From an uncultured delta proteobacterium (GTDB taxonomy: Bacteria > Desulfobacterota > Desulfobacteria > Desulfobacterales > UBA11574), in NCBI GenBank assembly GCA_963778575.1, contig CAVZUV010000008.1, positions 86,746 through 150,745 of the forward strand: 64,000 nucleotides of DNA. The letters run 5' to 3'. Position numbers and translations under genes: made by a program. Below the pieces are notes generated by a model. That model ran no database searches. It was not told the origin of the DNA and worked only from the letters and a program-made list of their open reading frames with translations. How positions within the stretch are numbered: position 1 is the stretch's first letter; the number at the start of each line of letters is the position of its first letter. Shown here in pieces: positions 1,210 through 34,948 of this stretch.

Positions 1210-1235
1210 TTTACATCCTGTAAAAAATTCTGACA
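1210..1235 (+). promoter_or_regulatory. 26-nt upstream element (putative enhancer/UAS), copy 1
   Basis: TTTACATCCTGTAAAAAATTCTGACA. It has a TTTACA/TGTAAA palindromic core and lies 122 nt upstream of the TGGCAT at 1332. The same element occurs at five other sigma-54 promoters. Confidence 0.7.
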
Positions 1236-1292: not shown

Positions 1293-1305
1293 TATCAGTC
1301 TGTTA
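1293..1305 (+). promoter_or_regulatory. IHF-like site at -39 relative to the -24 box
   Basis: TATCAGTCTGTTA compared with the IHF consensus WATCAANNNNTTR. Similar sites sit at the same offset at 14671, 31119 and 23662. Confidence 0.4.
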
Positions 1306-1331: not shown

Positions 1332-1346
1332 TGGCATATCTTTTGC
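1332..1346 (+). promoter_or_regulatory. sigma-54 (-24/-12) promoter
   Basis: TGGCAT-ATCTT-TTGC matches TGGCAC-N5-TTGC. It lies 39 nt upstream of the ATG at 1385, which has a GGAGG RBS. Confidence 0.75.
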
Positions 1347-1384: not shown

Positions 1385-1681
1385 ATGCCGAAAACCAATT
1401 CAAAACAAAACAATAAACGGAATAGCTGGACGTTTTCACTGGAAGCGTCAGAGGCCAAGGAAGTCTTCTTGATGGGAGATTTCAACAACTGGAGCCCGGG
1501 AAAGCATACCATGCGAAAAGATGAGAATGGAACATGGAAAAAACGGGTGATACTTTCCCCCGGGAACTATGAATACAAGTTTTTGGTAGACGGGCAGTGG
1601 AAGGAAGATCCTCGGAACAACCGGCGATGTCCCAATCGTTTCGGTACCTACAACAGTGTTATCCGTTTGCCCGAAGCTTAA
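1385..1681 (+). CDS. stand-alone glycogen-binding CBM48 (AMPK-beta-like) domain protein
   Basis: 98 aa with [50 protein letters not shown], the typical CBM48/E-set signature. Strong RBS. Paralog at 11238. Confidence 0.85.
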
Positions 1682-1698
1682 TGTTATGGAAGGAAGAA

Positions 1699-2163
1699 AT
1701 GAAAAGAATTCGAAAAATCATGGCGGCGTATGACTTTTCCGACTATTCGAAAGAAGCCTTGGTATTTGCTGTTGAGTTGGCCGATGAATTAAAAAGCGAT
1801 CTGATGATCGTCAATGTCATCAACCAAAGAGATTTAGAAGCAGTACGGAGAGCGGAAATAGAAAGCATTGGTTTCTCCGCAGACGAATTTATCAAAGACC
1901 GGAAAAAAGATCGATTGGAACAAATCAATCAAACCATCGAAGAAATCTCTGCCAAACACCGTCCTGTGGAGATAATCATCAAGACAGGCGTCCCGTTTCA
2001 TGAGCTGATACAGGCTGCCAAGGATAGCGGCGTCGATCTTGTGGTGATGGGGAGAAAGGGCCGCACCAATCTTGCAGGCATTCTTTTCGGCACAACAGCG
2101 GAAAAGATGTTCCGTCACTGCCCGGTTCCATTGTTAAGTTTGCGCGAGGATATGCACCGATGA
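1699..2163 (+). CDS. universal stress protein (UspA family)
   Basis: The ORF track gives 1597. ATG 1699 ([14 protein letters not shown]) avoids overlap with the CBM48 gene. The C-terminal motif [30 protein letters not shown] is typical of Usp ATP-binding proteins. Confidence 0.8.
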
Positions 2164-2193
2164 CTGATAATCCTTGTCCCATCGTTTATTTAG

Positions 2194-2337
2194 AAGCTAT
2201 CTCAAAATTAGGATTTTCGTTCGAAATCAAGGCGAGACCGAGGATCAACCCGCAGGCATACTCAAGTATGTCGAGGACTTGAGACGAGGGCTCAACGCTG
2301 ATATCGAGCGAAAAGACTTTTTTGAGATGGCTTATAG
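2194..2337. repeat. ~145-nt imperfect palindromic element, copy A (second copy at 14286..14433)
   Basis: The termini AGCTATCTCAAAA and TTTTGAGATGGCT are inverted. The central 60 nt are nearly identical to copy B (GAGGATCAACCCGCAGGCATACTCAAGTATGTCGAGGACTTGAGACGAGGGCTCAACG). It lies between two usp genes. Confidence 0.8.
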
Positions 2338-2373
2338 ATTAACCGGCGGATGTGTTCTTGAAAAGAGGCGAAT

Positions 2374-2820
2374 ATGTATAAAGTGATTTTAGTGCCGTTG
2401 GACGGATCAAAGCGGGCGGAACGGATATTGAAACATGTTGAGGAGTTGGCTCACTGCTTCAATGCCAAGGTCATTTTTCTGCAGGTGGTCACTGCTCCCA
2501 ATCTTGTGGGATATGACGAGAGCGCAATCTTGCTTTACCATCATAACCTGGAACAACTGGCCAAGCAGGCGAAATCTTATTTGGATTCTCTGAAAGGAGA
2601 ATTTCGTGAGAAAGGCATTGAAGCCAAAACTTGCGTTGTCGGCGGTCCGGTTGTGGAGCAGATTATTGACTGCGCTTTAAGAGAACATGCCGATCTCGTC
2701 GCAATGTCCAGCCACGGAAGAACCGGCTTGGCCCGGGCTTTTTACGGGAGCATAACCGCCGGTGTATTGAATCTGATCGATCGGCCGTTGCTCATTATCC
2801 GGTCACGAAGGGATAATTAG
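2374..2820 (+). CDS. universal stress protein (UspA family)
   Basis: MYKVILVPLDGSKRAE ... MSSHGRTGLARAFYGSITAGVLNLIDRPLLII. Close paralog of 17224..17673. Confidence 0.85.
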   Translation: MYKVILVPLDGSKRAERILKHVEELAHCFNAKVIFLQVVTAPNLVGYDESAILLYHHNLEQLAKQAKSYLDSLKGEFREKGIEAKTCVVGGPVVEQIIDCALREHADLVAMSSHGRTGLARAFYGSITAGVLNLIDRPLLIIRSRRDN

Positions 2821-2951
2821 GCAAAAAATGTGTCATTTCGGCCTGTGGCCGAAAATTCAAGCCATCCGCTTTGCGGGTGGTAATAGACTCCTTTATTTTA
2901 TCTTCTATAAAATATAGCTGATTTTCAAATCCGCAAAATTGGGAAATACCG

Positions 2952-5501
2952 GTGAAGCGCATTCTCACATACCAGATTTTTCCTTCTATCCCGAAATCAC
3001 TGGCCTTTTTGGAAGTTTTGTCTCGAAATCTCTGGTGGTGCTGGAAGCAGGATGCCATCACGCTGTTTCGGCGCATTGAACCGCAACTTTGGATAGAATC
3101 CAGAGGAAACCCGATTTACCTTTTGTCCCATGTCAGTCAGAAGCGCTTGGAGGAGCTGGCCGGGGATGACAGTTTTTTGAGCCATCTGCAACGGGTCGAG
3201 GATCGTTTTACAAAACGGGTTATCGATCATGCCGAACTATCCAATTCTCTTTACAAAAAAATGGGACCGGTGGCCTATTTTTCAATGGAATTTGGTGTCA
3301 ATGAAAATATTCCCTTTTTTGCCGGCGGACTGGGTGTCCTTGCCGGAGACCACTTAAAAGCTGCCTCCAACATGGCGTTGCCCCTCGTCGGGATCGGGTT
3401 GCTGTATCGAAAGGGCTATTTCCGTCAATATCTTGATCAAGAGGGATTGCAACAGGAAGAATATCCGGAAATAGAATTTTATTATCTTCCACTGGAGCGC
3501 GCCCGGGATCCCCAGGGCAATGAAATCACAATTTCAATTAATGGGCCTGAAAACGAGATTCACGCGTTTGTCTGGAAAATCCGAGTGGGCCGCACCCCTC
3601 TGTTTTTGCTCGATACCAATCTTCCTGAGAATACTCCGGAGGCCCGGGAAATTACGGCACGCCTTTATGTAGCTGAGCCCAAAATCAGGCTGGCCCAGGA
3701 AATACTGCTCGGCATCGGCGGCATGCGGGCATTGGCGGCTATGGATCTCTTTCCATCCGTTTGTCATATGAATGAAGGGCATTCGGCTTTCTCCGCTCTG
3801 GAACGTCTTGCACTGTTCATGGAGCGTTTTCACGTAGATTTAAAGACTGCCTTGCAAATTATTCCCCGTTGTACAATGTTTACCACTCATACCCCGGTTG
3901 CCGCCGGGCATGATTCTTTCCCCGTCGATTTGGTCAAGCCGTGGATTCGGCCGTTGAAAGATCGCCTGGGAGCCGGTGAAGAAGAAATTTTATCTTGGGG
4001 GCAAACTGAGGGTTTCAATAAAGACGCGCCGTTTTACATGTGTATTCTGGGTCTGCGAATGTCTCAGTATCGTAACGGCGTCAGCCGTCTTCACGACAGA
4101 ACCGCCAGAAAGATGTGGGCCCATCTTTGGCCGGGGTGGCCGGAAGACGAGATCCCGATTTCCCATGTCACCAACGGAATACATGTCTCGACGTTTATTT
4201 CCCAGGAAATCTGGCCGTTGTTTGAACGTTATCTGGGACCGGAATGGTACATGAGTTCACGGCGGCCCGAAAACATTGACCGTATTGACGAGATTTACGA
4301 CGACGAGCTCTGGCGGGCCCATGAGATGAGCCGTTCCCGGTTGATCCGCACCTGCCGAGGACTATTAAAACAACAATACGAAAGACGCAATGCACCCAAG
4401 AGCGTCATCGAAAAAATCGAAGCAGTCCTGAATCCTGAAGTGTTAACCATCGCCTTTGCCCGCAGGTTTGCTGCTTACAAACGGGCGCACCTGCTGCTTG
4501 AGGATCCTGATCGGCTGGCGGCGATTCTCAACAACGAAACCCGTCCGGTGCAGATCATTTTCGCTGGAAAAGCCCACCCCCAGGACAAAAAAGGAAAAGA
4601 AATCATCAAACGTCTGCTTGAATTTATCCGCCGGCCGGAAATTCGTCCGCACGCAGTATTTATTGAGGGTTACGATATGGCACTGGCAAGATCTCTGGTT
4701 CAGGGCGCCGATGTCTGGCTGAGTACTCCCCGCAGACCTTTAGAGGCCTGCGGCACATCCGGGATGAAAGCCGCCGTCAATGGTGTGCTCAATGTCAGTA
4801 TTTTGGATGGATGGTGGTGTGAAGGCTATTCCGAAGAACGGGGATGGCGAATCGGAGGCGGTGAAGAATATGTCGATCATGAATACCAGGATGCCACCGA
4901 GAGTCAGGCTCTGTATAACGTGTTGGAAAATGATGTAATCTCATGCTTTTACGAAGAGAACGAGGGAGAACTTCCAAAGCGCTGGATTCGAATGATGAAA
5001 GCCTCTATGAAAATGGCCATGAAGGATTTTTGCAGCTTGCGAATGGTTGGAGAATATGAACAACGCTTTTATAATCCCATCGTTCACCGGTTGAAAGCAT
5101 TGCTGAATAAAAATGGTCTGGAAGCCCGCAACCTTGCGCTCCAACAAGAACGGATTCAGAGCCTGTGGAAGGACATCCGCATTGGGCTGCCCGTCCAGAC
5201 CCGCAAGGGACCGTTTCGCGTTGGTGATCACTTCGAAGTTACGGTAGAAGTCGATCTGGGAAAACTAAATCCCGAAGAAGTCAGCGTGGAACTTTACAAT
5301 GGGCACATGAAAGCAGTGGATGCACTGGAGGGTATCAGTACGATTCCTATGACCGTCATTGAGCATTTCGGTAATGGAAATTATCGTTACGGTTGCAAGG
5401 TCCCCTGTGGATTGTCCGGACGGTATGGATTTACGGTCAGGGCCATACCCGCAGGTGACGATTTTTTAAAATTTTTGCCGCGATTGATCACCTGGTCTTA
5501 G
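2952..5501 (+). CDS. glgP: alpha-glucan (glycogen) phosphorylase, GT35, DUF3417-type N-terminus
   Basis: 849 aa. Motifs FSMEFGV..PFFAGGLGVLAGDHLKAAS, TTHTPVAAGHD and GTSGMKAAVNGVLNVSILDGWW (PLP-lysine region). GTG start. Confidence 0.9.
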   Translation: MKRILTYQIFPSIPKSLAFLEVLSRNLWWCWKQDAITLFRRIEPQLWIESRGNPIYLLSHVSQKRLEELAGDDSFLSHLQRVEDRFTKRVIDHAELSNSLYKKMGPVAYFSMEFGVNENIPFFAGGLGVLAGDHLKAASNMALPLVGIGLLYRKGYFRQYLDQEGLQQEEYPEIEFYYLPLERARDPQGNEITISINGPENEIHAFVWKIRVGRTPLFLLDTNLPENTPEAREITARLYVAEPKIRLAQEILLGIGGMRALAAMDLFPSVCHMNEGHSAFSALERLALFMERFHVDLKTALQIIPRCTMFTTHTPVAAGHDSFPVDLVKPWIRPLKDRLGAGEEEILSWGQTEGFNKDAPFYMCILGLRMSQYRNGVSRLHDRTARKMWAHLWPGWPEDEIPISHVTNGIHVSTFISQEIWPLFERYLGPEWYMSSRRPENIDRIDEIYDDELWRAHEMSRSRLIRTCRGLLKQQYERRNAPKSVIEKIEAVLNPEVLTIAFARRFAAYKRAHLLLEDPDRLAAILNNETRPVQIIFAGKAHPQDKKGKEIIKRLLEFIRRPEIRPHAVFIEGYDMALARSLVQGADVWLSTPRRPLEACGTSGMKAAVNGVLNVSILDGWWCEGYSEERGWRIGGGEEYVDHEYQDATESQALYNVLENDVISCFYEENEGELPKRWIRMMKASMKMAMKDFCSLRMVGEYEQRFYNPIVHRLKALLNKNGLEARNLALQQERIQSLWKDIRIGLPVQTRKGPFRVGDHFEVTVEVDLGKLNPEEVSVELYNGHMKAVDALEGISTIPMTVIEHFGNGNYRYGCKVPCGLSGRYGFTVRAIPAGDDFLKFLPRLITWS

Positions 5502-14588: not shown

Positions 14589-14614
14589 TTTACATCCTGT
14601 AAAAAATACTGACA
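14589..14614 (+). promoter_or_regulatory. 26-nt upstream element, copy 2
   Basis: TTTACATCCTGTAAAAAATACTGACA, 121 nt upstream of the TGGCAC at 14710. Confidence 0.7.
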
Positions 14615-14670
14615 TCAGTTTTTTTTCTTCCATGGAGAAACGTTAACGGGTCATTAAAAATTAGCGGATT

Positions 14671-14683
14671 TATCAAAGAGTTA
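14671..14683 (+). promoter_or_regulatory. IHF-like site at -39
   Basis: TATCAAAGAGTTA is a full match to WATCAANNNNTTR. Confidence 0.5.
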
Positions 14684-14709
14684 TTTAAACGCTTTTTAAA
14701 AGACGCCTT

Positions 14710-14724
14710 TGGCACACCTTTTGC
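14710..14724 (+). promoter_or_regulatory. sigma-54 (-24/-12) promoter
   Basis: TGGCAC-ACCTT-TTGC is a perfect consensus, 81 nt upstream of the ATG at 14805. Confidence 0.8.
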
Positions 14725-14804: not shown

Positions 14805-16085
14805 ATGAAGGGAATGAGAAAGATATACGACATGCTCATGTGGGGGGCATATGCCCATGCAAAATGGGAATATGAAACAAGCATGTCCATTCTTAGAAAC
14901 AAAAAGAAAATGCTTTTTCTGCTGATACTGGCTGTTGTCCTGGTCTCCACGGCTACAGTCCTGGTCTATGCAAAAGGGGCTCTGACACTCGGAGGAAGTA
15001 AAGCGTATGCCCCCCCGATCGGTTTTGCCGCGGGCGCCTTTATCGTTGCAATATTAGTGGGTTTTGCAGCAGGATTGATGACGGGAGCCATCGGCGTCGG
15101 CGGCGGGGTCGTCGTCACCCCGGCCTTGATGAGCGCGGGAATTAGAGGCATCGTCGTGGTGGGTACCGATCTTTTACACATGTTTGCCAAAGCTATTATG
15201 GGAACCGCCGTCCACAAGAAATTGGGGAACGTGAACTATCGTCTTGCCATCGCATTTGTGGTCGGCTCTTGTATCGGTGTTACTTGCGGCGGATACATAA
15301 ACAGAACTGTTTATAACATAAATCCGGTGCTGAGCGATGCGTTCATCAGCATAATCTATGTTGCCTTGCTCGGGTTTCTCGGTTTCTATGCCATTCAGGA
15401 TTACTTTCGCCTTAGAAAGGCAGGGGATTTAGTACAAGAAAAACAAGATAAAAAGGTGGAAATATCAGGGACCGCCCGAAAACTGCAGTCGCTGAAAATT
15501 CCCCCTATGATAAAATTCGATGAAGATCTGGTGCCCGGCGGAAGAAAGATATCTTTCCTTTTGGTCACCATTGTCGGTTTTTTTGTGGGGACATTTGCCG
15601 CAATAATGGGCGTCGGCGGCGGATTTCTAACATTTCCCTCCTTTGTTTATCTGCTCGGGATATCCTCTTTTACGACCGTCGGAACAGATATCTTCCAGAT
15701 CGTCTTCACGACGGGTTATGCTTCCATCGCCCAATATGCCATATATGGATTCATTTTTGTTTCACTGGCAATGGGCCTCCTTTTGGGATCGCTCATCGGC
15801 GTTCAATTCGGAGCGCTCACCACCAAGGTCGTGAAAGGCATGCACATCAGGGCATTTTACGGCTTGGTCATGCTCGCGGGCTTTATGAACCGGCTGCTGG
15901 CCCTACCCTCTAAGTTATCGGATTTAGGATTCATTCACATCTCAAAATCTCTGGGGGGCAACCTGAAGCTGGCCGGAGTCGTCATACTGTTCGGAATCAT
16001 AACCTACTTTGCGCTGTGGGTTTTTTACCGCTTTATAACCAATGTTCAAACGTTTAGACAGGAAGCCCTGAAAATGGAGGGATAG
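14805..16085 (+). CDS. TauE/SafE (DUF81)-family anion permease-like membrane protein
   Basis: 426 aa and polytopic. Two internal repeats with TGAIGVGGGVVVTPALM and AAIMGVGGGFLTFPSFVYLLG. Paralog at 37504..38803. Confidence 0.75.
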   Translation: MKGMRKIYDMLMWGAYAHAKWEYETSMSILRNKKKMLFLLILAVVLVSTATVLVYAKGALTLGGSKAYAPPIGFAAGAFIVAILVGFAAGLMTGAIGVGGGVVVTPALMSAGIRGIVVVGTDLLHMFAKAIMGTAVHKKLGNVNYRLAIAFVVGSCIGVTCGGYINRTVYNINPVLSDAFISIIYVALLGFLGFYAIQDYFRLRKAGDLVQEKQDKKVEISGTARKLQSLKIPPMIKFDEDLVPGGRKISFLLVTIVGFFVGTFAAIMGVGGGFLTFPSFVYLLGISSFTTVGTDIFQIVFTTGYASIAQYAIYGFIFVSLAMGLLLGSLIGVQFGALTTKVVKGMHIRAFYGLVMLAGFMNRLLALPSKLSDLGFIHISKSLGGNLKLAGVVILFGIITYFALWVFYRFITNVQTFRQEALKMEG

Positions 16086-16088
16086 AAA

Positions 16089-16796
16089 ATGGAACTCGTT
16101 TTGAATAAAAAGGAATTCACACTGGGGGCGGTCCTCACGGTTGCCTTCTTTGTCTTTTTGTTTGCAATACATACCATCGCAGTCATCAGCATCAACGGAA
16201 AATCCCTGGTGCGTTACACCGATGAGATGTTTGTATCCGTATCCAAAGGCTCGGTTTACTTTATCCCGGAGCTTGTGAAATCGGCAGACAAACATGTTGG
16301 AAAAATTCTCGATGTCAAAATAAAGAAAAACGAAAAAGCGGCAATGCTCTTCAAAAAGGCGAACGCAAGCGTTATTTCGGAAAATGGAGATCTGAAGATA
16401 AAAGGGGATTTGGGCGAGATATTAAAAAGCGTCCTTGCAGATGCCGACGCCGTCTTCAAGGGTGAAGACAAGCCATTATACGAGAGATACGGATATGCCG
16501 GTAAGGAGGTTGTGCTTCAGTGGTGGTTGGCTTTTAAAGAAATAGAGGGCGTGTTTCAAAAAGCCAAAAAGTTTGCTGGAATAAAACCCTTGGAAACGGT
16601 AAGAATCAAGGCACTTGAGCCGGCATTTAACTTTTATGGGGTCGAAGCAACATCCGCCTCGCAACATGTTTGGGGCATAACCGGTATTATTGGATTCTAC
16701 GTGGTATACACGGTGTGGTGGGGATATGCCATATACTTTCTTTGCGAGGGCGTGGGACTGCTGATGAAAAAATCCAAGGAAAAAAAGGAAGCGTAA
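16089..16796 (+). CDS. conserved hypothetical membrane protein, partner of the TauE-like gene
   Basis: 235 aa with one N-terminal and two C-terminal TM helices. Homologous to 38800..39486 (GDLGEILKSVLADADAVF vs GDLAKILSNCLADADSMY). Starts 4 nt after the upstream stop. Confidence 0.7.
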   Translation: MELVLNKKEFTLGAVLTVAFFVFLFAIHTIAVISINGKSLVRYTDEMFVSVSKGSVYFIPELVKSADKHVGKILDVKIKKNEKAAMLFKKANASVISENGDLKIKGDLGEILKSVLADADAVFKGEDKPLYERYGYAGKEVVLQWWLAFKEIEGVFQKAKKFAGIKPLETVRIKALEPAFNFYGVEATSASQHVWGITGIIGFYVVYTVWWGYAIYFLCEGVGLLMKKSKEKKEA

Positions 16797-16856
16797 ACTT
16801 TTTAAAAATGAAGGTCGTTTTCCGTCATTCATTGGTTTTGTTCAAAGGTTTGAAAC

Positions 16857-17108
16857 ATGTTAAGCAATATGGGTAAAGCCGATCGGCTGATTCGCACGGC
16901 AGCGGTGTTTGTCATTGTCTTCGGCAGTATTTATTTTAATGGATTGTGGGCGATTTTGGGTGTTCTGATTCTTTTAACCGCCGTTATGGGTTGGTGTCCG
17001 ATTTATGCTCTCTTCCATTTGTCCACCACCAGAGAGCAAGCAGAAATACCTGCAAATACATCCGGTGAACATAAACCGCGGCGCGGACCGAAACGATTGT
17101 TAAAATAA
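16857..17108 (+). CDS. DUF2892 (YgaP-like) small membrane protein
   Basis: DRLIRTAAVFVIVFG ... LLTAVMGWCPIYALF, the characteristic GWCP-x-Y motif. Confidence 0.7.
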   Translation: MLSNMGKADRLIRTAAVFVIVFGSIYFNGLWAILGVLILLTAVMGWCPIYALFHLSTTREQAEIPANTSGEHKPRRGPKRLLK

Positions 17109-17223
17109 CCGAGTCCGGGGAAGTTTTCTTAAAAAAAAGCGCTGCATGGTGCGTCCTTGGAGCGATTTGAAAAATAAAAACGCCGCGACGCAGCATGTAA
17201 CTTCGTCATCAAAGGAGCCTGTC

Positions 17224-17673
17224 ATGTATAATAAAATACTGGTCCCCCTGGATGGCTCGAAACGAGCGGAAGCCATTTTACCCCATGCCGAGGAAATGGC
17301 GAATCGATACGGGGCCGAGATAATTTTTCTTCGCGTTGAAGAATTGTTTGTCATGCTGGAGTGGGATGAGGTCGTAAATCTGGAGAATTGTCGCGAAAAG
17401 TTCGATGCGCGAAAGAAAACGTCGGAAGCGTATCTGTCCCTGCTTAAAACCGAATTCCGGGATAAAGGCATTCGGGCAGACGCACGCGTCGTTCATGGAC
17501 CGGTGGTGAAGTCGATATTAACCGCTGCCGAAGATATGGACGTGGATATCCTGCTAATGGCCAGTCACGGTCTTGGCGGATTGCGCCGAACTTTTTATGG
17601 CAGCGTCACTGCCGGCGTCCTGCAAAAGATAGACCGTCCCTTGCTGATCATCAGAACCCGCAGAATGGAGTAG
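17224..17673 (+). CDS. universal stress protein (UspA family)
   Basis: ATG 17224 after an AAAGGAG RBS. MYNKILVPLDGSKRAEAIL ... MASHGLGGLRRTFYGSVTAGVLQKIDRPLLII. Confidence 0.85.
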   Translation: MYNKILVPLDGSKRAEAILPHAEEMANRYGAEIIFLRVEELFVMLEWDEVVNLENCREKFDARKKTSEAYLSLLKTEFRDKGIRADARVVHGPVVKSILTAAEDMDVDILLMASHGLGGLRRTFYGSVTAGVLQKIDRPLLIIRTRRME

Positions 17674-17741
17674 GACAAGCGGAGTGTACATATTCAGGGA
17701 GGCGTACCCCCTGAATATGTGCCGCGGAGCGATCAAGACAG

Positions 17742-19136
17742 ATGAGAGTATTTGGTTGCATGGCGGTCGGGACGATTTTTCTTTTCTTTTCCTTCCCTCT
17801 TGCCGATGCACTTGCCGGTGAATCCGGAAGTGTCGGACTCCTAGACTCCGGAACTGATTTTCTGTGGATCGCCATTATTATCCTGGGGGCCAAATTATCC
17901 AATCTGGTAGAACGATTCGGACAGCCTGGGGTCTTAGGCGAACTGCTGTTCGGAGTGGTATTGGGTAACATGGCGTTGACCGGTTTCAATTTCTTTGAGC
18001 CGATACGGAAAGATATCGTTATCCGTTTTTTGGCTGACATCGGTGTTGTCATTTTACTCTTCCAGGTCGGCCTTGAATCGAATATCCGGAAAATGCTGCA
18101 AGTGGGTCCCCGGGCCTTTCTCGTTGCCGTTGTCGGCGTTACTGTACCGTTTTTTCTGGGTACCGTTGTGGCCGGACCCATTCTTCTGCCTGAGCTATCT
18201 TTCAATGCACATCTTTTTATGGGAGCAATTCTGACGGCCACTTCGGTGGGCATCACGGCACGGATCTTCCATGATCTGGGTCAACTGAAAACCCCTGAGG
18301 CTCAAATCATTTTAGGAGCAGCGGTCATCGACGACGTCATGGGTTTGGCGATTCTGGCTGTTGTTAAAGCCATGGCGGAATCCGGGAAGGTCAGTTTCAT
18401 GGACATTGGCTGGATTGCTGCGAAGGCGGTTCTTTTTTTAGGTGGCGCTATTTTTTTAGGACAGCTTCTGGCGCCGAGGCTGGGGCGGTTCTTTTCAAAA
18501 ATAAACCCGGGAATCGGTATGAAACTTATTTTGGCAGTGGGTTTTGGGTTGATTTTTGCGTACGTTGCGGAATTGATCGGTCTGGCTGCCATTGTCGGCG
18601 CCTTTGCCGCCGGACTGGTTTTGGAACCGGTCCATTTTCGGCATTTTGATGTCCCCGGTGTTGTCTCCGACATCAATGAAAGCATCCGGCAGGCAAGCCC
18701 GGAAGTGAGAAAAAAAGTTTCGGGTGTGTTGGAAGCCCTTGCACGTAACCATATCAAAGAGCTCATCCAACCCTTGGGGTACTTCCTGGTCCCTATCTTT
18801 TTCGTTTTGACCGGCATGCAAGTGAGGATTGAAACGCTGTTTAATGTGCGTATCCTGATATTGGCCACGGCCATTTCCGTTGCAGCATTCGGCGGAAAGA
18901 TCGTTGCCGGGTTCGTTGCCGGAAGCGTTCGTAAATCGATTGTCGGCTGGGGCATGGTACCCAGAGGCGAAGTCGGATTGATTTTTGCTGCAACAGGAAA
19001 AGCCCTGGGTGTGTTGCCCGATGATATTTTTTCTATGATGGTGATTGTCATTATGATCACGACCATTTTGCCCCCACTCATCCTGAACGCCATGATAATG
19101 CGGCAGGATCCAGCCTTATATCCGGCAGATTCATAA
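17742..19136 (+). CDS. cation:proton antiporter (CPA2, Kef/NapA-like)
   Basis: 464 aa with about 12 TM segments. QPGVLGELLFGVVLG, LLFQVGLE and the other features are typical of the Na_H_Exchanger family. Confidence 0.8.
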   Translation: MRVFGCMAVGTIFLFFSFPLADALAGESGSVGLLDSGTDFLWIAIIILGAKLSNLVERFGQPGVLGELLFGVVLGNMALTGFNFFEPIRKDIVIRFLADIGVVILLFQVGLESNIRKMLQVGPRAFLVAVVGVTVPFFLGTVVAGPILLPELSFNAHLFMGAILTATSVGITARIFHDLGQLKTPEAQIILGAAVIDDVMGLAILAVVKAMAESGKVSFMDIGWIAAKAVLFLGGAIFLGQLLAPRLGRFFSKINPGIGMKLILAVGFGLIFAYVAELIGLAAIVGAFAAGLVLEPVHFRHFDVPGVVSDINESIRQASPEVRKKVSGVLEALARNHIKELIQPLGYFLVPIFFVLTGMQVRIETLFNVRILILATAISVAAFGGKIVAGFVAGSVRKSIVGWGMVPRGEVGLIFAATGKALGVLPDDIFSMMVIVIMITTILPPLILNAMIMRQDPALYPADS

Positions 19137-22530: not shown

Positions 22531-23313
22531 CTAAGACGCTGTTGCTGTTTCAGCTATTCCGGAATATGAAAGTTCCTCGGCAAACTTTTTCTTAAAGGCC
22601 AGTTCAACAATCTCCGCCGCATCTCGTGTATTTTTGATATAGTCACAATTGATCACCAAATCAAACTCATATGGAACGGCCATTTTTTTGTCGAAAATCT
22701 TTTTAAAAAATTCACTTTGTTCCTTATCCAATTGCGGTAACTTTGAGGCGGCCTCTTTCTTTTCAACGTTGAGAATTCTGGACAATCGCTTAATCCGGTG
22801 CTCGTCCGAACAGATGCATCTGACCGCCAGCACCCGGTCCCGGGGAAGGATTAAATGGGTTCCCCTGCCGACAAAAATGGTGGGTTCCAAGCCGGCGATG
22901 GAAAGCACAACATTCGCAAGATGACGGCTATAGTCGCTTTTAATAAAGGATTTTTCACCGAAGAGAAGCTTGACGAATTCGTTTAAAACGCCGGGATACC
23001 GTTCATCGAAATAGGAGACTGTTTTTTCGCTGAGTTTCGCCTCCTGGGCGATATGCATCAGCAGTCCCCTGTCAACCACATTGTAGTTGATCTTTTTTGC
23101 CAGAATATCTGCAATCTCGAGAGCGCCGACGCCGATTTTTCGAGAAAAACAGATCGTAGGAAAAATCGCGGGTCTCTTTTCCTTTTTTTTCTTTTCAATC
23201 CATTTTTGATCCAGATCACGAAAATACTTATCAGCCAGTTGGGAACCGGTGGGTCTTTTTTTTTCGTACATCCCCGGAATGTATTTTACACCTCCGATTT
23301 GTATAGCCATCAT
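22531..23313 (-). CDS. cytidylate kinase-like family protein
   Basis: 260 aa with TICFSRKIGVGALEIADILAKKINYNVVDRGLL. Resembles 54910..55761 in its N-terminal half. Confidence 0.6.
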   Translation of the reverse strand: MMAIQIGGVKYIPGMYEKKRPTGSQLADKYFRDLDQKWIEKKKKEKRPAIFPTICFSRKIGVGALEIADILAKKINYNVVDRGLLMHIAQEAKLSEKTVSYFDERYPGVLNEFVKLLFGEKSFIKSDYSRHLANVVLSIAGLEPTIFVGRGTHLILPRDRVLAVRCICSDEHRIKRLSRILNVEKKEAASKLPQLDKEQSEFFKKIFDKKMAVPYEFDLVINCDYIKNTRDAAEIVELAFKKKFAEELSYSGIAETATAS

Positions 23314-23408: not shown

Positions 23409-23423
23409 GCAACTATTATGCCA
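23409..23423 (-). promoter_or_regulatory. sigma-54 (-24/-12) promoter, minus strand
   Basis: The reverse complement reads TGGCAT-AATAG-TTGC. It lies about 96 nt upstream of the minus-strand ATG at 23313. Confidence 0.7.
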
Positions 23424-23519: not shown

Positions 23520-23545
23520 TGTCCGTTTTTTTTACAAACTGTAAA
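23520..23545 (-). promoter_or_regulatory. 26-nt upstream element, minus-strand orientation
   Basis: The minus strand reads TTTACAGTTTGTAAAAAAAACGGACA, starting 122 nt upstream of the minus-strand TGGCAT at 23423. Confidence 0.7.
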
Positions 23546-23579: not shown

Positions 23580-23605
23580 TTTACAGGTTGTAAAAATATC
23601 CGACA
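23580..23605 (+). promoter_or_regulatory. 26-nt upstream element, copy 4
   Basis: TTTACAGGTTGTAAAAATATCCGACA, 122 nt upstream of the TGGAAT at 23702. Confidence 0.7.
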
Positions 23606-23661: not shown

Positions 23662-23674
23662 TAACAATATGTTA
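23662..23674 (+). promoter_or_regulatory. IHF-like site at about -40
   Basis: TAACAATATGTTA, one mismatch to WATCAANNNNTTR. Confidence 0.35.
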
Positions 23675-23701: not shown

Positions 23702-23716
23702 TGGAATAGTTATTGC
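23702..23716 (+). promoter_or_regulatory. sigma-54-type promoter with non-canonical -24 box
   Basis: TGGAAT-AGTTA-TTGC. It is accepted mainly because the 26-nt element and the IHF-like site sit at the canonical offsets. Confidence 0.55.
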
Positions 23717-23837: not shown

Positions 23838-24773
23838 ATGAAGAATCAATCTCAACAAAAAGTACTGTTGACTTTTGACGGATCCGAACATGCTTTTCAT
23901 GCGATAAATTATGTGAGCAAACTCACCCCTTTTCATAAAATGAAGATTGTGCTTTTTAATGTTTTCAGCAGCATACCCGAGGCGTATGCGGATCTTGAAA
24001 AAGATCCCCAATTCAGTCGATCCGCCCGGGAGGTCATGGCGTGGGAAATGCAGCAGAAAAAAGAGATTCAAAACGCCATGGAGAATGCAAAGCAAAAGCT
24101 TCTCCATTCAGGCTTTTCTTCAGACGCCGTCTCCATACGAATTCATAACAAGAAAGAAGGTATTGCCAGAGACATCGTCAAGGAAGCCCGGAACGGGTAC
24201 GATGCAGTGATTATCGGGCGAAGGGGCACGGGTACCTATAAAGAGGTCATTGTTGGAAGCGTTGCGAAAAAAATCGTTGAAAAAGTGATTTTCCTGCCGG
24301 TTTTAATGATCGGTGAAATACCCCCTGACAACAAATTTCTATTAGCCGTTGACAACTCAGAAAATGCCATTCGGGCTGTAGATTACATTGCTCGTGTACT
24401 GGGTGGTTTCGATTTCAAAATAACCTTGTTTCATGCCATTCGAGGTGCCCAATCGACTCATTCAGGTATTGCGCATCTATTTTTTCCCAAAGAAAGCTTA
24501 GAGGATGCAGAAGCCGGTGTAATGACTGCTTTCGACAACGCAAAACGACATTTGGAAGATGCCGGTATTACGTCCGGTCAAATATCTACCAAATTGGTTT
24601 CCGGCGTCCCCAGCCGCGCAGAAGCGATTATTAGAGAAGCGAGAGAGGGAGATTACGGCACCATCGTTTTAGGCCGAAGAGGCCTGTCCAAGGTTCAGGC
24701 ATTTTTGCTGGGCAGGGTGAGTAACAAAGTCATTAGCATTATCCGAAGAAGAGCGGTATGGATCGTGACCTAA
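23838..24773 (+). CDS. tandem-domain universal stress protein
   Basis: 311 aa with two Usp repeats (IIGRRGTGTYKEVIVGSVAKKIVEKVIFLPVLMI and VLGRRGLSKVQAFLLGRVSNKVISIIRRRAVWIV). Confidence 0.85.
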   Translation: MKNQSQQKVLLTFDGSEHAFHAINYVSKLTPFHKMKIVLFNVFSSIPEAYADLEKDPQFSRSAREVMAWEMQQKKEIQNAMENAKQKLLHSGFSSDAVSIRIHNKKEGIARDIVKEARNGYDAVIIGRRGTGTYKEVIVGSVAKKIVEKVIFLPVLMIGEIPPDNKFLLAVDNSENAIRAVDYIARVLGGFDFKITLFHAIRGAQSTHSGIAHLFFPKESLEDAEAGVMTAFDNAKRHLEDAGITSGQISTKLVSGVPSRAEAIIREAREGDYGTIVLGRRGLSKVQAFLLGRVSNKVISIIRRRAVWIVT

Positions 24774-24818
24774 TGGTTGCAAAATCGGTTAAACTACTTA
24801 AAAAAAAGGAGGTTCATT

Positions 24819-25301
24819 ATGAAGGCGATTATGGATTTCAAAAAGTTCGATTTCTTTCATGCGTTTTCGGAAGATCAGTTGGGAGAACTCATGAAAGTCA
24901 CGGAGAAAAAAACCTTCAAAAAAGGGACTCAAATCTACAAGGAGGGTGATCGGGCCAATCAAATTTTTATCGTTTCCAAAGGATGGGTGAAACTGCGAAA
25001 GATTGATCCGGGAAAAGATATTGACATTTCTTTTGAAAACAGGAGCAAAGGGGAGCTGTTCGGTGCGGCATGTTTTATGAAACCCCAGGAATATACATTG
25101 AATGCCATATGTATGGAAGACACTGAGGTTATGGCCATGAACGCGGATGACTTATTTGATCTCTTCCATAAAGATTATCAAATCGGATACCTTTTTCTAA
25201 AAGAAATCGCAAAGGTCTATTTCGAACGCTATAAAAACGTCAAAAAACAGCTTTATGGCATGTTCAAAGACCCTGCGACCATCACAGCACTGCCGGGATA
25301 A
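24819..25301 (+). CDS. cyclic-nucleotide-binding domain protein without a DNA-binding domain
   Basis: ATG 24819 after an AGGAGG RBS. FDFFHAFSEDQLGELMK..FKKGTQIYKEGDRANQIFIVSKGWVKL..GELFG. About 160 aa, too short to carry an HTH. Confidence 0.7.
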   Translation: MKAIMDFKKFDFFHAFSEDQLGELMKVTEKKTFKKGTQIYKEGDRANQIFIVSKGWVKLRKIDPGKDIDISFENRSKGELFGAACFMKPQEYTLNAICMEDTEVMAMNADDLFDLFHKDYQIGYLFLKEIAKVYFERYKNVKKQLYGMFKDPATITALPG

Positions 25302-26536: not shown

Positions 26537-26562
26537 TTTACATTCTGAAAAAAATATCGACA
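26537..26562 (+). promoter_or_regulatory. 26-nt upstream element, copy 5 (variant)
   Basis: TTTACATTCTGAAAAAAATATCGACA. It lies 100 nt upstream of the TGGCAT at 26637, which is 22 nt shorter than at the other promoters. Confidence 0.6.
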
Positions 26563-26636: not shown

Positions 26637-26651
26637 TGGCATGTTTTTTGC
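26637..26651 (+). promoter_or_regulatory. sigma-54 (-24/-12) promoter
   Basis: TGGCAT-GTTTT-TTGC, 70 nt upstream of the ATG at 26721. Confidence 0.7.
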
Positions 26652-26720: not shown

Positions 26721-27095
26721 ATGCCCAAAATTCTAATCGTCGACGACAAAAAGGTGATTCTCAAGGCGCTATATCATGAGCTGAATATTGAGAACTTTCA
26801 AGTCGTAACTTTAAACACCATCGGATTGATCTGGGAATATATAAGCGATACGCGACCGGATTTAGTGCTTTTAGGACTTCATTCGGAAAGTTTTGACAGT
26901 TGGCAAATTTTAAATGATATTAAAAAGAGAATTCCGGATCTGCCGGTACTCATTTATATCATCGAGAGCCACCGTTCAATGAACAGCCTCAAACAGGCCA
27001 TCAGTGAAGTCCTTAAGAATGGCAGTATTTCATCGGCATTTATGTTCCATGCGTTAAGAAAACCGGAATCCGAGAAATCCGAGAAGATTGAATAA
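26721..27095 (+). CDS. receiver-like protein lacking the phospho-acceptor Asp (pseudo-receiver)
   Basis: KILIVDDKK ... PDLVLLGLHSES. A Gly sits where receivers carry the phosphorylated Asp (compare DLVLLDL). Confidence 0.65.
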   Translation: MPKILIVDDKKVILKALYHELNIENFQVVTLNTIGLIWEYISDTRPDLVLLGLHSESFDSWQILNDIKKRIPDLPVLIYIIESHRSMNSLKQAISEVLKNGSISSAFMFHALRKPESEKSEKIE

Positions 27096-27125
27096 CTTTT
27101 AAACAATAAGGCGAGGTTGCTTTCA

Positions 27126-28634
27126 ATGACTGTTACGTCGTATCCCATTTTAACACCGGATGAGGCCGCATCGTACATAAAGGACGGTGATACGGTTTCA
27201 TTTAGCGGGTTCAGCCCCGCCGGTGCGGCAAAAATCGTACCCAGAGCGATCGCCGCTCGTGCTCGGGATGAACACGAAAAAGGAAATCGTTTCAAAATGA
27301 GGGTGCTCACCGGCGCTTCCAGCGGACGTATCATCGATGATGAACTGGCTCAGGCGGAAGCGGTTTCATGGCGTGCTCCGTACCAGTCGGGTTCTGTTTT
27401 ACGCAAACAGATCAATCGCCAGGAGGTTGAATATGTGGACATGCACCTTTCCCATGTCCCGCAGGCCGTGGCCGAAGGTTTTTTCGGCCGGATCGACGTT
27501 GCGGTCGTGGAAGCCACAGAGATCACATCAGACGGAAGAGTATTTCTGACAACATCCATCGGCGCTTCTCCAACGTATCTTCGATACGCAGAAAAGGTCA
27601 TCATTGAAATCAACAGACATCAATCTCCGCGGCTCCGCGAGATGGCGGACATCGTGGTAATGCCCCCGCCGCCCAAGCGATATCCCATACCTATCTACGA
27701 ACCCCTGACGCGTATCGGTTTTCCCTATGCAGTGACTGATCCCAAAAAGGTCATCGGCCTTGTGGAAAGCGACGAGCCCGACCAGGTGATTGAATTAGCG
27801 GCACCGGATGGCAGCAGCCGCCAAATCGCCGAACATGTGGTCCGCTTTTTCTTGGAAGAGATACATAGAGGCCGGCTTCCCAAAGCATTATTGCCGATCC
27901 AGGCAGGTGTCGGCAACGTTGCCAACGGCGTGTTGGCTGCCTTGGGGAACCATCCGGATATTCCCCCTTTTAGCATGTATTCGGAAGTTTTTCAGGATGC
28001 CATGGTGGATCTCATGGCCCAGGAGAAGCTTCTGGGCGCCAGCGCTACGAGCTTGACCATCTCATCTCATAAATTAAAACAACTTGTGGCGGAGATAGAT
28101 TTTTTTGCTTGTCGCATTGTACTGCGGCCCCAGGAAATTTCTAACCACCCGGGCGTCATTCGAAGGCTGGGGATCATCGCTTTGAATACGGCGATCGAGA
28201 TGGATATTTACGGGAATGTGAATTCTTCGCACCTATACGGCATGGATATCATGAACGGCATCGGCGGCAGCGGCGAGTTTACGAGAAACAGCTATTTGTC
28301 AGTTTTCATGACACCCTCAATCGCCAAAGGCGGCAGGATATCTTCCATAGTACCCATGTGCCCGCATGTGGACAATAACGAGCACTCTGTTCAAATCGTC
28401 GTTACCGAACAGGGATTGGCGGATCTCAGAGGACTAGGGCCCATGCAAAGAGCAGAACTCATCATCGAAAAATGTGCTCATCCTGCGTACAGGGACTACC
28501 TTTATCGATACATACAAGATGCCAGGCTCGGGCACATTCGGCATGATCTGATACGATGCTTTGAACTGCATCGAAATTTGTTGGAACACGGCGCCATGCT
28601 TCCGGATTTAGCATATGAAGACATTTCTAATTAA
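27126..28634 (+). CDS. acetyl-CoA hydrolase/transferase family protein (succinyl-CoA:acetate CoA-transferase-like)
   Basis: About 500 aa. TVSFSGFSPAGAAK, IQAGVGNVANGV and EMDIYGNVNSSH..NGIGGSGEF are typical of the Cat1/AarC family. Confidence 0.8.
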   Translation: MTVTSYPILTPDEAASYIKDGDTVSFSGFSPAGAAKIVPRAIAARARDEHEKGNRFKMRVLTGASSGRIIDDELAQAEAVSWRAPYQSGSVLRKQINRQEVEYVDMHLSHVPQAVAEGFFGRIDVAVVEATEITSDGRVFLTTSIGASPTYLRYAEKVIIEINRHQSPRLREMADIVVMPPPPKRYPIPIYEPLTRIGFPYAVTDPKKVIGLVESDEPDQVIELAAPDGSSRQIAEHVVRFFLEEIHRGRLPKALLPIQAGVGNVANGVLAALGNHPDIPPFSMYSEVFQDAMVDLMAQEKLLGASATSLTISSHKLKQLVAEIDFFACRIVLRPQEISNHPGVIRRLGIIALNTAIEMDIYGNVNSSHLYGMDIMNGIGGSGEFTRNSYLSVFMTPSIAKGGRISSIVPMCPHVDNNEHSVQIVVTEQGLADLRGLGPMQRAELIIEKCAHPAYRDYLYRYIQDARLGHIRHDLIRCFELHRNLLEHGAMLPDLAYEDISN

Positions 28635-29034
28635 ATATCCCGACAAGATTCTTTCGATGGTGTTATGGGTGGTTGCCGTCCATTCCATTTTGATGGGACT
28701 GGCACTGATTTCGCAACCCACTATCCTAATGGAATGGTCAGGCTTCAACGCCGGGTATGAACGATTTTTTCCTGCCCAGGGCGGTGTTTTTCATTTACTC
28801 ATGGCTGTCGCATACTCACTGGGGGCCGTAAATCCTGAAAAGTATCAATTTTTGATTGTCTTTGCAGTGATTGTAAAGGCCGTGGCAACAGTGTTTTTGC
28901 TGATATACTGTTTTGCCGTTGAATTCAACTGGGTCATTTTGGTTTCCGGAATCAGTGACGGTGTAATGGGCATGGCGATTTTTATCGCTTTTCGTCGCTA
29001 TATTTATTTTCAAACAATAAACGGCAGAGTATGA
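28615..29034 (+). CDS. hypothetical 4-TM membrane protein
   Basis: 139 aa and hydrophobic. It overlaps the upstream gene by 20 nt and the downstream gene by 4 nt, consistent with an operon. Confidence 0.55.
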   Translation: MKTFLIKYPDKILSMVLWVVAVHSILMGLALISQPTILMEWSGFNAGYERFFPAQGGVFHLLMAVAYSLGAVNPEKYQFLIVFAVIVKAVATVFLLIYCFAVEFNWVILVSGISDGVMGMAIFIAFRRYIYFQTINGRV

Positions 29035-31035: not shown

Positions 31036-31061
31036 TTTACACCTTGTAAAAAAAATCGACA
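31036..31061 (+). promoter_or_regulatory. 26-nt upstream element, copy 3
   Basis: TTTACACCTTGTAAAAAAAATCGACA, 122 nt upstream of the TGGCAT at 31158. Confidence 0.7.
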
Positions 31062-31118: not shown

Positions 31119-31131
31119 TTTCAATTAATTG
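31119..31131 (+). promoter_or_regulatory. IHF-like site at -39
   Basis: TTTCAATTAATTG, one mismatch to WATCAANNNNTTR. Confidence 0.35.
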
Positions 31132-31157: not shown

Positions 31158-31172
31158 TGGCATAGCGATTGC
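31158..31172 (+). promoter_or_regulatory. sigma-54 (-24/-12) promoter
   Basis: TGGCAT-AGCGA-TTGC, 53 nt upstream of the ATG at 31225. Confidence 0.75.
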
Positions 31173-33705: not shown

Positions 33706-33789
33706 CACAAATCGAGGCTTAAAAACCGAATACGTGTTCACAGGGGTGTGCATCCCCTGTACACATACAAAACATAAAGGAGGGGTATC

Positions 33790-34467
33790 ATGTTGGTCAA
33801 AAATTGGATGAGCAAACCGGCTGTTACCATTGATGTGAACGAGTCCATGAATGATGCAATTAAGCTGCTTAAAAAACACAACATCAAAATGCTGCCAGTG
33901 ATGGAAAAAGGCAAACTCATTGGGATTATAACCGATCGGGATATCAAAAGGGCGTCTGCTTCCGATGCCACGACCCTGGAAATTCATGAACTGCTATATT
34001 TAATTTCAAAAATCAAAATTAAGGAGATCATGACCAAAAATCCCGTTACGGTTCCTCCCGACTATACCATTGAAGAAACGGCGGAAGTTCTTTTAAAGCA
34101 TAACATTTCGGGAGTGCCGGTGGTGGATCATTACGGGATGGTGGTGGGTGTGGTGACTCAGAATGACATTTTCAAAACCATTATTTCACTGACCGGTGCG
34201 GAAAAAAGAGGCATTCAATTCGGCATGGAGGTGGAGGATCGGCCGGGCGCCATAAAGGAAGTGACGGATATCATTCGGGGATACGGTGGACGCACGGCGA
34301 GCATCCTGACGTCCTACGACATGGTTCCGGAAGGATTTCGCCGGGTGTATATTCGCATGTATGGCATCGATCGGTTCAAAATCAATAGACTCAAGGAAGC
34401 GCTGAGAGCGAAAGCACGACTTTTATATATGGTGGACCGCCGTGAAGTCACCAGAGAAACTTTTTAG
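33790..34467 (+). CDS. CBS-pair plus ACT-like domain protein (AcuB-like)
   Basis: Two CBS motifs (MLPVMEKGKLIGIITDRDI and GVPVVDHYGMVVGVVTQNDI) followed by an ~80-aa ACT-like C-terminus. Confidence 0.75.
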   Translation: MLVKNWMSKPAVTIDVNESMNDAIKLLKKHNIKMLPVMEKGKLIGIITDRDIKRASASDATTLEIHELLYLISKIKIKEIMTKNPVTVPPDYTIEETAEVLLKHNISGVPVVDHYGMVVGVVTQNDIFKTIISLTGAEKRGIQFGMEVEDRPGAIKEVTDIIRGYGGRTASILTSYDMVPEGFRRVYIRMYGIDRFKINRLKEALRAKARLLYMVDRREVTRETF

Positions 34468-34484
34468 TTTATTCATAAGGGCTG

Positions 34485-34886: not shown

Positions 34887-34948
34887 GAAAAAGCACGTGC
34901 TCAGACCGCTTACTTTCCGAGCACGTTCGAAATAAAATCAGAGGCTTT

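Follow-up and report, generated by a model that had tools for sequence, protein, structure and literature searches.

Six intergenic regions within a 64,000-nt stretch of DNA from an uncultured delta proteobacterium (contig CAVZUV010000008.1 of assembly GCA_963778575.1; the whole stretch is hereafter called the window) carry the same oriented 26-nt element upstream of a sigma-54 promoter, which raises the question of what activator recognizes this element and what genes are placed under its control. With a likelihood of roughly 70%, the element is the upstream activating sequence (UAS) of a two-component enhancer-binding protein (EBP) of the NtrC family, of the type of DVU0110 from Desulfovibrio vulgaris, which would be encoded outside the window. 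The system belongs to the DVU0110-type regulon as a new and considerably larger member, and is not a new kind of element: the architecture is textbook, and the core motif is already catalogued.

A search of the window for TTTACANNNTGWAAAAANNNNNGACA, that is TTTACA-N3-TG(T/A)AAAAA-N5-GACA, returns exactly six matches, on the plus strand at 1210, 14589, 23580, 26537 and 31036 and on the minus strand at 23520-23545, reproducing the coordinates given in the initial annotation, and 100 dinucleotide-preserving shuffles of the window return none. When scored with a weight matrix built solely from independent metagenome sites (the protein-seeded set described below), the six copies reach 34.5-38.6 bits; elsewhere in the window the top score is 15.9 bits, and the best score across 20 shuffles is 16.1 bits. 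All six lie between open reading frames (ORFs). Each is followed on the same strand by a -24/-12 box, TGGCAY-N5-TTGC in five cases and TGGAAT in one, located 39-122 nt 5' of the start codon. The distances from the first base of the element to the first base of the box are exactly those first claimed, namely 122, 121, 122, 122, 122 and, for the copy at 26537, 100 nt. The observation of six sigma-54 promoters with a shared site is confirmed. The six regions align only at the element, at a short block near -40 and at the boxes, and the ~96-nt spacers are otherwise unalignable, indicating that these promoters are not recent duplicates of one cassette. The short block had been described as an integration host factor (IHF)-like site about 39 nt upstream of the -24 box at four promoters. 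Its position (-39/-40) holds, but WATCAANNNNTTR is matched exactly at only one promoter; three others carry it with one mismatch, and two lack it.

At promoter 1, the UAS TTTACATCCTGTAAAAAATTCTGACA (1210..1235, plus strand; an exact pattern match scoring 38.6 bits) is followed by the IHF-like site TATCAGTCTGTTA (1293..1305, plus; one mismatch to WATCAANNNNTTR, -39 from the -24 box) and by the -24/-12 box TGGCATATCTTTTGC (1332..1346, plus), which begins 122 nt from the start of the site. Promoter 2 combines the pattern match TTTACATCCTGTAAAAAATACTGACA (14589..14614, plus; 36.7 bits) with the exact IHF consensus TATCAAAGAGTTA (14671..14683, plus; -39 from the -24 box) and the box TGGCACACCTTTTGC (14710..14724, plus) at 121 nt. 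Sites 3 and 4 are divergent partners. Site 3, the pattern match TTTACAGTTTGTAAAAAAAACGGACA (23520..23545, minus strand; 35.3 bits), is conserved in a related metagenome-assembled genome (L098; ~80% nucleotide identity) and lies 122 nt from its box TGGCATAATAGTTGC (23409..23423, minus). Site 4, the pattern match TTTACAGGTTGTAAAAATATCCGACA (23580..23605, plus; 36.2 bits), is paired with the IHF-like site TAACAATATGTTA (23662..23674, plus; one mismatch, -40 from the -24 box, conserved in L098) and with the box TGGAATAGTTATTGC (23702..23716, plus; 122 nt from the start of the site, identical in L098). Site 5, TTTACATTCTGAAAAAAATATCGACA (26537..26562, plus; pattern match, 34.5 bits), is the TGA variant, and its box TGGCATGTTTTTTGC (26637..26651, plus) begins 100 nt from its start, which is 22 nt, or about two helical turns, below 122. 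Promoter 6 comprises the pattern match TTTACACCTTGTAAAAAAAATCGACA (31036..31061, plus; 36.9 bits), the IHF-like site TTTCAATTAATTG (31119..31131, plus; one mismatch, -39 from the -24 box) and the box TGGCATAGCGATTGC (31158..31172, plus), again at 122 nt.

The element is not specific to the window. A scan for the exact pattern, with one genome per prokaryotic species, matched at least 120 stretches; among the matches listed, 33 are copies of a single unrelated and conserved 26-mer, TTTACARGGTGTAAAAATYRAYGACA, and 91 are other sites, mostly in records labelled Desulfobacterales, Desulfobacteraceae, Syntrophobacterales, Desulfomonile, Desulfobaccales, Desulfohalobiaceae or 'delta proteobacterium'. 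A -24/-12 box is found at +95 to +160 in 66 of these 91 listed sites, which are not of the Bacteroidota type, and 3' of none of the 33 copies of TTTACARGGTGTAAAAATYRAYGACA, which serve as a negative control. These figures contradict the alternative named in the initial annotation, that the 26-mer is a dispersed repeat with no positional bias towards sigma-54 boxes. The scan also showed the motif in relatives such as strain NaphS2, Desulfocicer vacuolatum, Desulforapulum autotrophicum and Desulfosudis oleivorans. By its predicted promoters, the regulon is conserved across the phylum Desulfobacterota.

In a second scan, metagenome contigs were searched with only the C-terminal DNA-binding region of the regulator described below, and the two scans together yield 124 distinct site-promoter pairs among the matches listed. 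In 92 of the 124 pairs (74%), site and box are 119-125 nt apart, and in another 16 they are 111-114 nt apart. Four pairs fall at 99-100 nt, the class of window promoter 5, three at 133-135 nt, one at 146 nt and four at 153-159 nt, with four further pairs at 117, 118, 126 and 127 nt, such that most off-mode distances lie roughly one or several helical turns away from 122 nt. The GACA end faces the promoter in every one of these listed cases. In addition, the IHF consensus (with at most one mismatch) is found at -40/-39 from the TGG of the box in 41 of the 124 pairs, against a background of 0.76 per offset, an enrichment of about 25-fold. The arrangement of EBP site, IHF bend and sigma-54 promoter first proposed for the window is borne out in many genomes by the single orientation, the phased distances and the enriched IHF consensus. 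In the relative L098, the 100-nt spacing of the promoter 5 type is also kept, and the sites persist as conserved islands within diverged intergenic DNA. The divergent sites 3 and 4 are ~85 nt further apart in L098, though each keeps 121-122 nt to its own promoter, indicating that the conserved unit is site, bend and promoter together.

A candidate for the activator is encoded beside the sites in other organisms. At ten loci from the motif scan, each in a different genome, an orthologous activator of ~478 amino acids (aa) is encoded directly 5' of the site on the same strand. This protein has the receiver-AAA-Fis architecture of an NtrC-family response regulator, and its gene is preceded by that of a partner histidine kinase with a 4HB_MCP_1/CHASE3-like sensor. 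The ten activators are 65-89% identical to one another and 36-39% identical to the activator of the window. The reciprocal test covered 71 loci in which the contig runs on for 300 nt or more past the regulator gene. In 37 of them, the site TTTACANNNTGTAAA (with at most one mismatch) lies within 600 nt 3' of the regulator stop codon on the same strand, beginning in the closest cases 12-30 nt past the matched C-terminal region of the regulator gene, and nearly all sites in these 37 loci are followed by GACA and by a sigma-54 box at +111 to +126.

The regulator itself is highly conserved, with a helix-turn-helix, GNRSxAAKLLGLSRPTLHSKIEKY, that is nearly invariant in 80 loci and homologues at least 73% identical to the query across the best 120 database matches. 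In databases, the family is named only 'NR(I)', which is an automatic naming, or 'sigma-54 dependent Fis family regulator'. Its best NCBIfam match is the NtrC model TIGR01818, for which its score of 493.6 bits falls below the cutoff of 558.6, and it is also under the curated cutoff for AtoC. At one locus at least (L158, 496-521), a site with a sigma-54 box lies 5' of the kinase-regulator operon itself, suggesting that this operon may be autoregulated. At another (L039, 707-2814), CBS and CitMHS genes stand ahead of the kinase gene.

The protein-seeded sites also help to define the element. For this set, only the 15-nt palindrome TTTACANNNTGTAAA (with at most one mismatch) and a 3' sigma-54 box were required, leaving positions 16-26 unselected. 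GACA is retained in 44 of the 45 sites, and positions 16-18 are A-rich. The resulting logo, yTTTACA-N3-TGTAAAAaw-N-yCGACA, contains three half-sites, TTTACA (positions 1-6), TGTAAA (10-15) and yCGACA (21-26), all equally conserved beside the DVU0110-like gene. The second and third form a TGT-N11-ACA dyad, which is typical of this regulator group. A fourth half-site, sought as a TGT at -10 to -8 or as a right half after GACA at +30 to +35, is conserved at neither position. The first half-site, TTTACA, looks like the remnant, the 3' half, of another dyad placed 20 bp upstream on the same helix face, as in the tandem sites of the PEP-CTERM regulator PrsR. Comparison with the D. vulgaris motifs of DVU3305, DVU0946/0539, DVU0804, DVU0118 and DVU3381 and with the TyrR box gave no fit over the full element.

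Positions 10-26 of the element match TGTAAAAAAAGCTGACA, the listed DVU0110 site in D. vulgaris, D. piger, D. magneticus and D. vulgaris Miyazaki (Kazakov et al., 2015; PMC4641369 Additional file 4). An example is TGTAAAAAATTCTGACA, and there are two to three spacer differences at sites 1, 2 and 6. The initial annotation did not recognize the motif as a described EBP site; this was incorrect for the 3' 17 nt, which are the published DVU0110/DVUA0057 site, and stands for the extended element, which was not found described. No description of the motif or of a Usp/sigma-54 regulon in Desulfobacteraceae was found in the literature searched. The published DVU0110 regulon has two target operons, DVU0132-0133 and DVU1152, and carries the function label exopolysaccharide/biofilm and transport (PMC4641369). 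The first of these encodes a permease of the TSUP family behind a sigma-54 promoter, and in D. magneticus TGTAAAAAAAGCTGACA is listed beside the regulator gene (PMC4641369). The DVU0130/DVU0132 intergenic region is the top DVU0110 peak by DNA affinity purification on arrays (DAP-chip), and the DVU0132 upstream region is the only nearby sigma-54 promoter region shifted by DVU0110 in an electrophoretic mobility shift assay (Rajeev et al., 2011; PMC3333781). However, the motif is credited jointly to DVU0110 and to DVUA0057, the PEP-CTERM regulator PrsR (PMC4641369).

To place the co-localized regulator among its relatives, its DNA-binding domain was compared with those of 36 D. vulgaris activators, given as 42-aa strings (PMC4641369 Additional file 2). 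The appearance of DVU0118 as the nearest relative seems to be an artefact of a label shift in that table, in which the labels of the 23 two-component rows are out of step by one row. The sequence given as DVU0110 is encoded on pDV1 at 68687-70117 (L204 2688-4118), beside exosortase and EpsI genes, and is DVUA0057 by position, and the row labelled DVUA0057 is encoded in a split gene at pDV1 29689-31241 (L203 9690-11242), the DVUA0024 pseudogene. A one-row shift also raises the identity of the paralogues DVU0539 and DVU0946, which have a common binding site, from 13/42 to 24/42. Any pairing of domains with motifs taken straight from the table would mismatch them. A protein search with the 42-aa string of the row labelled DVU0110, which is actually that of DVUA0057, gave no match. 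After correction of the labels, the domain of the co-localized regulator is closest to that of DVU0110 (23/42), with the next best at 19/42.

The resemblance to the DVU0110 system covers both the site and the protein: TGTAAAAAAAGCTGACA equals element positions 10-26 and lies 5' of a sigma-54 promoter with a TSUP/TauE permease among the targets, and DVU0110 is itself a receiver-AAA-Fis response regulator, with the D. vulgaris DNA-binding domain closest to that of the co-localized regulator. Unlike the published motif, the element here is 26-27 nt long, with a third, equally conserved half-site, TTTACA-N3, outside that motif. The element stands at a fixed ~122 nt from the -24 box, together with an IHF site, in comparison to ~210 nt in D. 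vulgaris. Six operons in 30 kb stand against the two listed operons there, with recurrent Usp, CBS, GlgP and receiver-kinase targets, and the gene content points to stress and energy reserve, in contrast to the exopolysaccharide/biofilm function assigned in the paper. The three-half-site element and the rigid, phased 122-nt spacing with a positioned IHF site were not found described, nor were the spread across Desulfobacterota lineages, the Usp/CBS/glycogen content and the link to a single, strongly conserved two-component system.

The sequence architecture, its conservation and its co-localization with the regulator gene are directly observed, and from these we infer binding by the regulator, activation, a signal and a physiology that may be pictured as follows. 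The membrane histidine kinase, through its 4HB_MCP/CHASE3-like sensor, would sense a signal and phosphorylate the regulator, which would then oligomerize on the three half-sites of the element, the palindrome centre lying ~141 nt upstream of the expected start (itself placed ~12 nt after the GC of the -12 box). An IHF-type bend, with its core at ~-65 to -53 and centred ~60 nt upstream of the expected start, would bring the ATPase ring to the sigma-54 holoenzyme at TGGCAY-N5-TTGC, which the ring would remodel. These steps follow established knowledge of NtrC-family activators. The element would work in only one orientation and one helical phase; the fixed orientation and phasing imply a rigid nucleoprotein geometry. 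The six operons so driven would supply nucleotide-sensing and stress proteins (Usp, CBS, cyclic-nucleotide-binding), glycogen mobilization (CBM48, alpha-glucan phosphorylase), enzymes of acyl-CoA metabolism and protein acetylation, anion and cation transporters (TauE/TSUP, Na/H exchanger) and a second-tier receiver-kinase pair.

An activator of the PrsR type (DVUA0057-like, the PEP-CTERM/exosortase regulator) might bind the element instead, or the element might be a composite in which the TTTACA-N3-TGTAAA palindrome serves one activator and the TGTAAA-N6-CGACA dyad the other; we consider either version unlikely, despite several points of resemblance. DVUA0057 sites are TGT-N11-ACA dyads, among them TGTAAGGTTTCTCGACA and TGTAAGTTTTTTCGACA, which come near to element positions 10-26. 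Its other sites are dyads of the form TGTCGG-N5-yTTACA or CCGACA, frequently arranged in tandem at intervals of 19-20 bp (PMC4641369), and those on pDV1, 19 bp apart (…CTTACA-GG-TGTCGG…), resemble TTTACA-N3-TGTAAA. DVUA0057 also has a DAP-chip target at DVU0132 (PMC4641369, PMC3333781), and PrsR motif 1 is a 17-mer ending in TTTACA, located 63 +/- 11 nt 5' of a sigma-54 box (Haft et al., 2006; PMC1569441). The two systems thus share a 17-nt TGT-N11-ACA dyad, a TTTACA half-site, a sigma-54 box, a tandem spacing of 19-20 bp and an NtrC-family regulator. However, no PrsR-like activator is encoded near any site, and the sole two other activators near sites have unrelated DNA-binding domains. The co-localized regulator misses the cutoff of the PrsR model TIGR02915 (442.5 vs 502.6 bits), as its kinase, matching in the catalytic domain only, does that of the PrsK model TIGR02916 (90 vs 300 bits). 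The PEP-CTERM family is absent from the domain families listed for 176 downstream proteins (for the first set of these, the 25 most frequent of 47 families), and from the window operons, and the same lists hold no exosortase. In addition, the spacer to the -24 box is ~96 nt, longer and far less variable than the 63 +/- 11 nt of PrsR sites, the arrangement of half-sites and their orientation to the promoter differ, and all three half-sites are equally conserved beside the DVU0110-like gene.

The initial annotation correctly counted one EBP in the window (given there as 57247..58617), which is seen at 57142-58617 with a kinase at 55809-57236, and it listed this protein for testing against the element without claiming it as the activator. 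As the only sigma-54 activator in the window, encoded in an operon with a cytidylate-kinase-like gene and a CitMHS transporter gene, families also found 3' of sites elsewhere, it would be a candidate, yet a very improbable one. It is only 36-39% identical to the site-flanking regulators and differs from them in the recognition helix (IDRVSLWRKIKRF, compared to LSRPTLHSKIEKY in the co-localized regulator). Among the corrected sequences, that of DVU3305 is the closest to its DNA-binding domain (23/42). The DVU3305 site is GTTGC-N5-GCAAC, of which two copies lie at 46373 and 46460 beside a Lon-receiver gene. The 26-mer is absent near the operon of the window activator. The chance that the 26-mer and its promoter are a dispersed repeat or a duplicated cassette of no regulatory meaning, or a coincidence of AT-rich intergenic DNA, is negligible. 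Six copies do fall within 30 kb, in a region that is AT-rich with many A-tracts, but the shuffles hold no match and the 96-nt spacers are unalignable. The element is kept in distant lineages together with a sigma-54 box whose orientation and phase do not change, whereas the AT-rich Bacteroidota matches are never boxed, and the sites in L098 are islands in diverged intergenic DNA.

Several points nevertheless weigh against assignment of the element to a DVU0110-type regulator. The putative orthology to DVU0110 depends on a 42-aa domain with 55% identity and on our own correction of the published table. With the site joint to DVU0110 and DVUA0057, a PrsR-like protein could bind instead or as well. 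The D. vulgaris site lies ~210 nt from its promoter, not 113 nt, and the rigid spacing therefore fails outside the scanned genomes. Of the regulator loci, 34 of the 71 have no adjacent site, including one whole sub-lineage. The cognate regulator was not found in the 64-kb window, and its presence in this organism is an assumption; transcription starts, sigma-54 dependence and binding in this genome are likewise predictions. The physiological label is a guess based on domain names.

Other known systems resemble the element to varying extents. In Escherichia coli, the NtrC enhancer of glnAp2 is the palindrome TGCACCA-N3-TGGTGCA, with a 3-bp centre ~140 nt upstream of the start, and NtrC sites work at variable distance and orientation. 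The likeness lies in the xCA-N3-TGx palindrome, the position ~140 nt upstream and a phosphorylated receiver-AAA-Fis activator. Unlike NtrC, however, the regulator here scores below the family cutoff and is paired with a membrane 4HB kinase instead of NtrB, its sites are oriented and phased with IHF, and nitrogen-metabolism targets are lacking, as no gln or amt family is among the domain families listed for the targets. The TyrR box, TGTAAA-N6-TTTACA, and the DVU0804 site, TGTAAA-N7-TTTACA, contain the same hexamers, but in the opposite order, with TTTACA first here, and with other spacing, making the resemblance superficial.

The genes downstream of the six promoters were called correctly from sequence at the outset, as Pfam bears out. 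Operon 1 (1385..5501, plus strand) encodes a CBM48/AMPK-type glycogen-binding module, two Usp proteins and an alpha-glucan phosphorylase (NCBIfam TIGR02094, 788 bits). Operon 2 (14805..19136, plus) encodes a TauE/TSUP permease, a 235-aa protein without known family, a YgaP-like membrane protein, a Usp protein and a Na/H exchanger. We take the TSUP family to be the same as the Pfam TauE family, to which the first gene of operon 2 belongs. Gene 3 (22531..23313, minus) encodes a cytidylate-kinase-like protein (PF13189), and the divergent operon 4 (23838..25301, plus) encodes a tandem-Usp protein and a cyclic-nucleotide (cNMP)-binding protein. A single receiver domain, an acetyl-CoA hydrolase/transferase, a 139-aa protein without known family and an NAD-dependent epimerase/short-chain dehydrogenase are encoded in operon 5 (26721..30728, plus). 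Operon 6 (31225..36658, plus) comprises genes for an ADP-forming acyl-CoA synthetase-GNAT fusion (Pat-like), a 225-aa CBS-pair protein, a receiver domain and a dCache histidine kinase. The TauE gene of operon 2 (PF01925) is the counterpart of the Desulfovibrio target DVU0132 (PMC4641369).

Similar families recur downstream of sites in other genomes, which were sampled as a first set of 108 downstream proteins and a second set of 68. Receiver domains are the most frequent in the first set (23, with 15 in the second), and Usp domains number 12 and 13, respectively. TauE is found in 11 of the 108 and is not listed for the second set, and the Na-sulfate symporter/CitMHS family shows the same distribution, with 6 in the first. 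CBS domains rise from 2 to 16 between the sets, histidine kinase/dCache domains number 9-10 and 4-5, PPDK_N 3 and 1, and Cytidylate_kin2 2 and 1. PstS-like binding proteins, which were not counted in the first set, number 3 in the second, in which CstA and the phosphorylase N-terminal domain also occur. Two hallmark targets of other genomes, a CBS protein with a length of exactly 225 aa and a receiver-then-Cache-kinase pair, recur in the second set and are found in window operon 6 as well. As the same families recur, the initial description of the six operons as a stress or energy-reserve programme is a fair reading, and their gene content, which includes Usp and CBS proteins that bind adenine nucleotides, suggests a programme for starvation or stress.

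A more far-reaching proposal may be put forward tentatively, although we think it rather doubtful: that a single conserved two-component sigma-54 activator of the DVU0110 family governs a general starvation or energy-charge regulon across Desulfobacterota through an unusually rigid enhancer, in which three half-sites keep to a single orientation and helical phase alongside a positioned IHF site. Its targets would be the nucleotide sensors of the Usp, CBS and cNMP families, the AMPK-like glycogen-binding module, glycogen phosphorylase, a Pat-type acetyltransferase and anion transporters. If so, the regulon would take in sulfate reducers the role that RpoS-type general stress sigma factors have elsewhere, and the 'exopolysaccharide/biofilm' label of DVU0110 would be a misnomer. 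To our knowledge, sulfate-reducing Desulfobacterota contain dozens of sigma-54 activators, most of them without known function. Linking one of the most conserved of these to a defined DNA element and a recurrent target set extends the two-operon Desulfovibrio regulon to a predicted multi-operon regulon elsewhere in the phylum and offers a testable handle on stress and energy-reserve switching in mostly uncultured sediment bacteria. The strict orientation and spacing also recommend the element as a clean natural case in which to study how geometry constrains enhancer-dependent transcription.

Several further observations concern the same window and scans. Glycogen genes cluster amid the regulon operons, comprising two CBM48/AMPK-type glycogen-binding paralogues, a GT5 glycogen synthase and an alpha-glucan phosphorylase (1385-1681, 11238-11534, 12133-13833, 2952-5501); among them, the element is present only at the operon at 1385-5501. 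The unrelated 26-mer TTTACARGGTGTAAAAATYRAYGACA is nearly invariant in Bacteroidota, with further copies in records labelled Legionella, Comamonas and Piscirickettsiaceae (loci including L008, L015, L016, L018, L023, L025 and L030). A search of Rfam around it gave no match, and it is probably part of a highly conserved gene. Within the window, perfect or consensus -24/-12 boxes at 19271 and 46554 have no degenerate copy of the element upstream by the window scan. The former (19271-19285) is identical to the box of promoter 1, TGGCATATCTTTTGC, and lies 117 nt 5' of an ORF (19402-22470) for a protein of 1022 aa with no Pfam match. Since no 26-mer lies 5' of it, this box, if functional, must be served by a different activator.

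The long intergenic region 5' of the CitMHS/cytidylate-kinase-like/kinase/activator operon contains an inverted repeat, TTGTCGCG ... CGCGACAA (52620-52627 and 52716-52723, ~90 nt apart), and no canonical -24/-12 box was found in this region. A second sigma-54 module in the window resembles the 'general stress' three-component system DVU3303-3305 of D. vulgaris. That system is likewise sigma-54 dependent and controls genes for UspA-domain proteins and anion transporters, but its site is GTTGC-N5-GCAAC, not the 26-mer, and its apparent counterpart here seems to control another window promoter, at 46554. The module includes a receiver-AAA-Lon protease gene (44280-46283, minus strand), like DVU3303, and two GTTGC-N5-GCAAC-like sites (46373-46387 and 46460-46474, one mismatch each) that lie 181 and 94 nt 5' of the consensus box TGGCACAAGAGTTGC (46554-46568). 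It also takes in the kinase/activator pair at 55809-58617, ~10 kb away.

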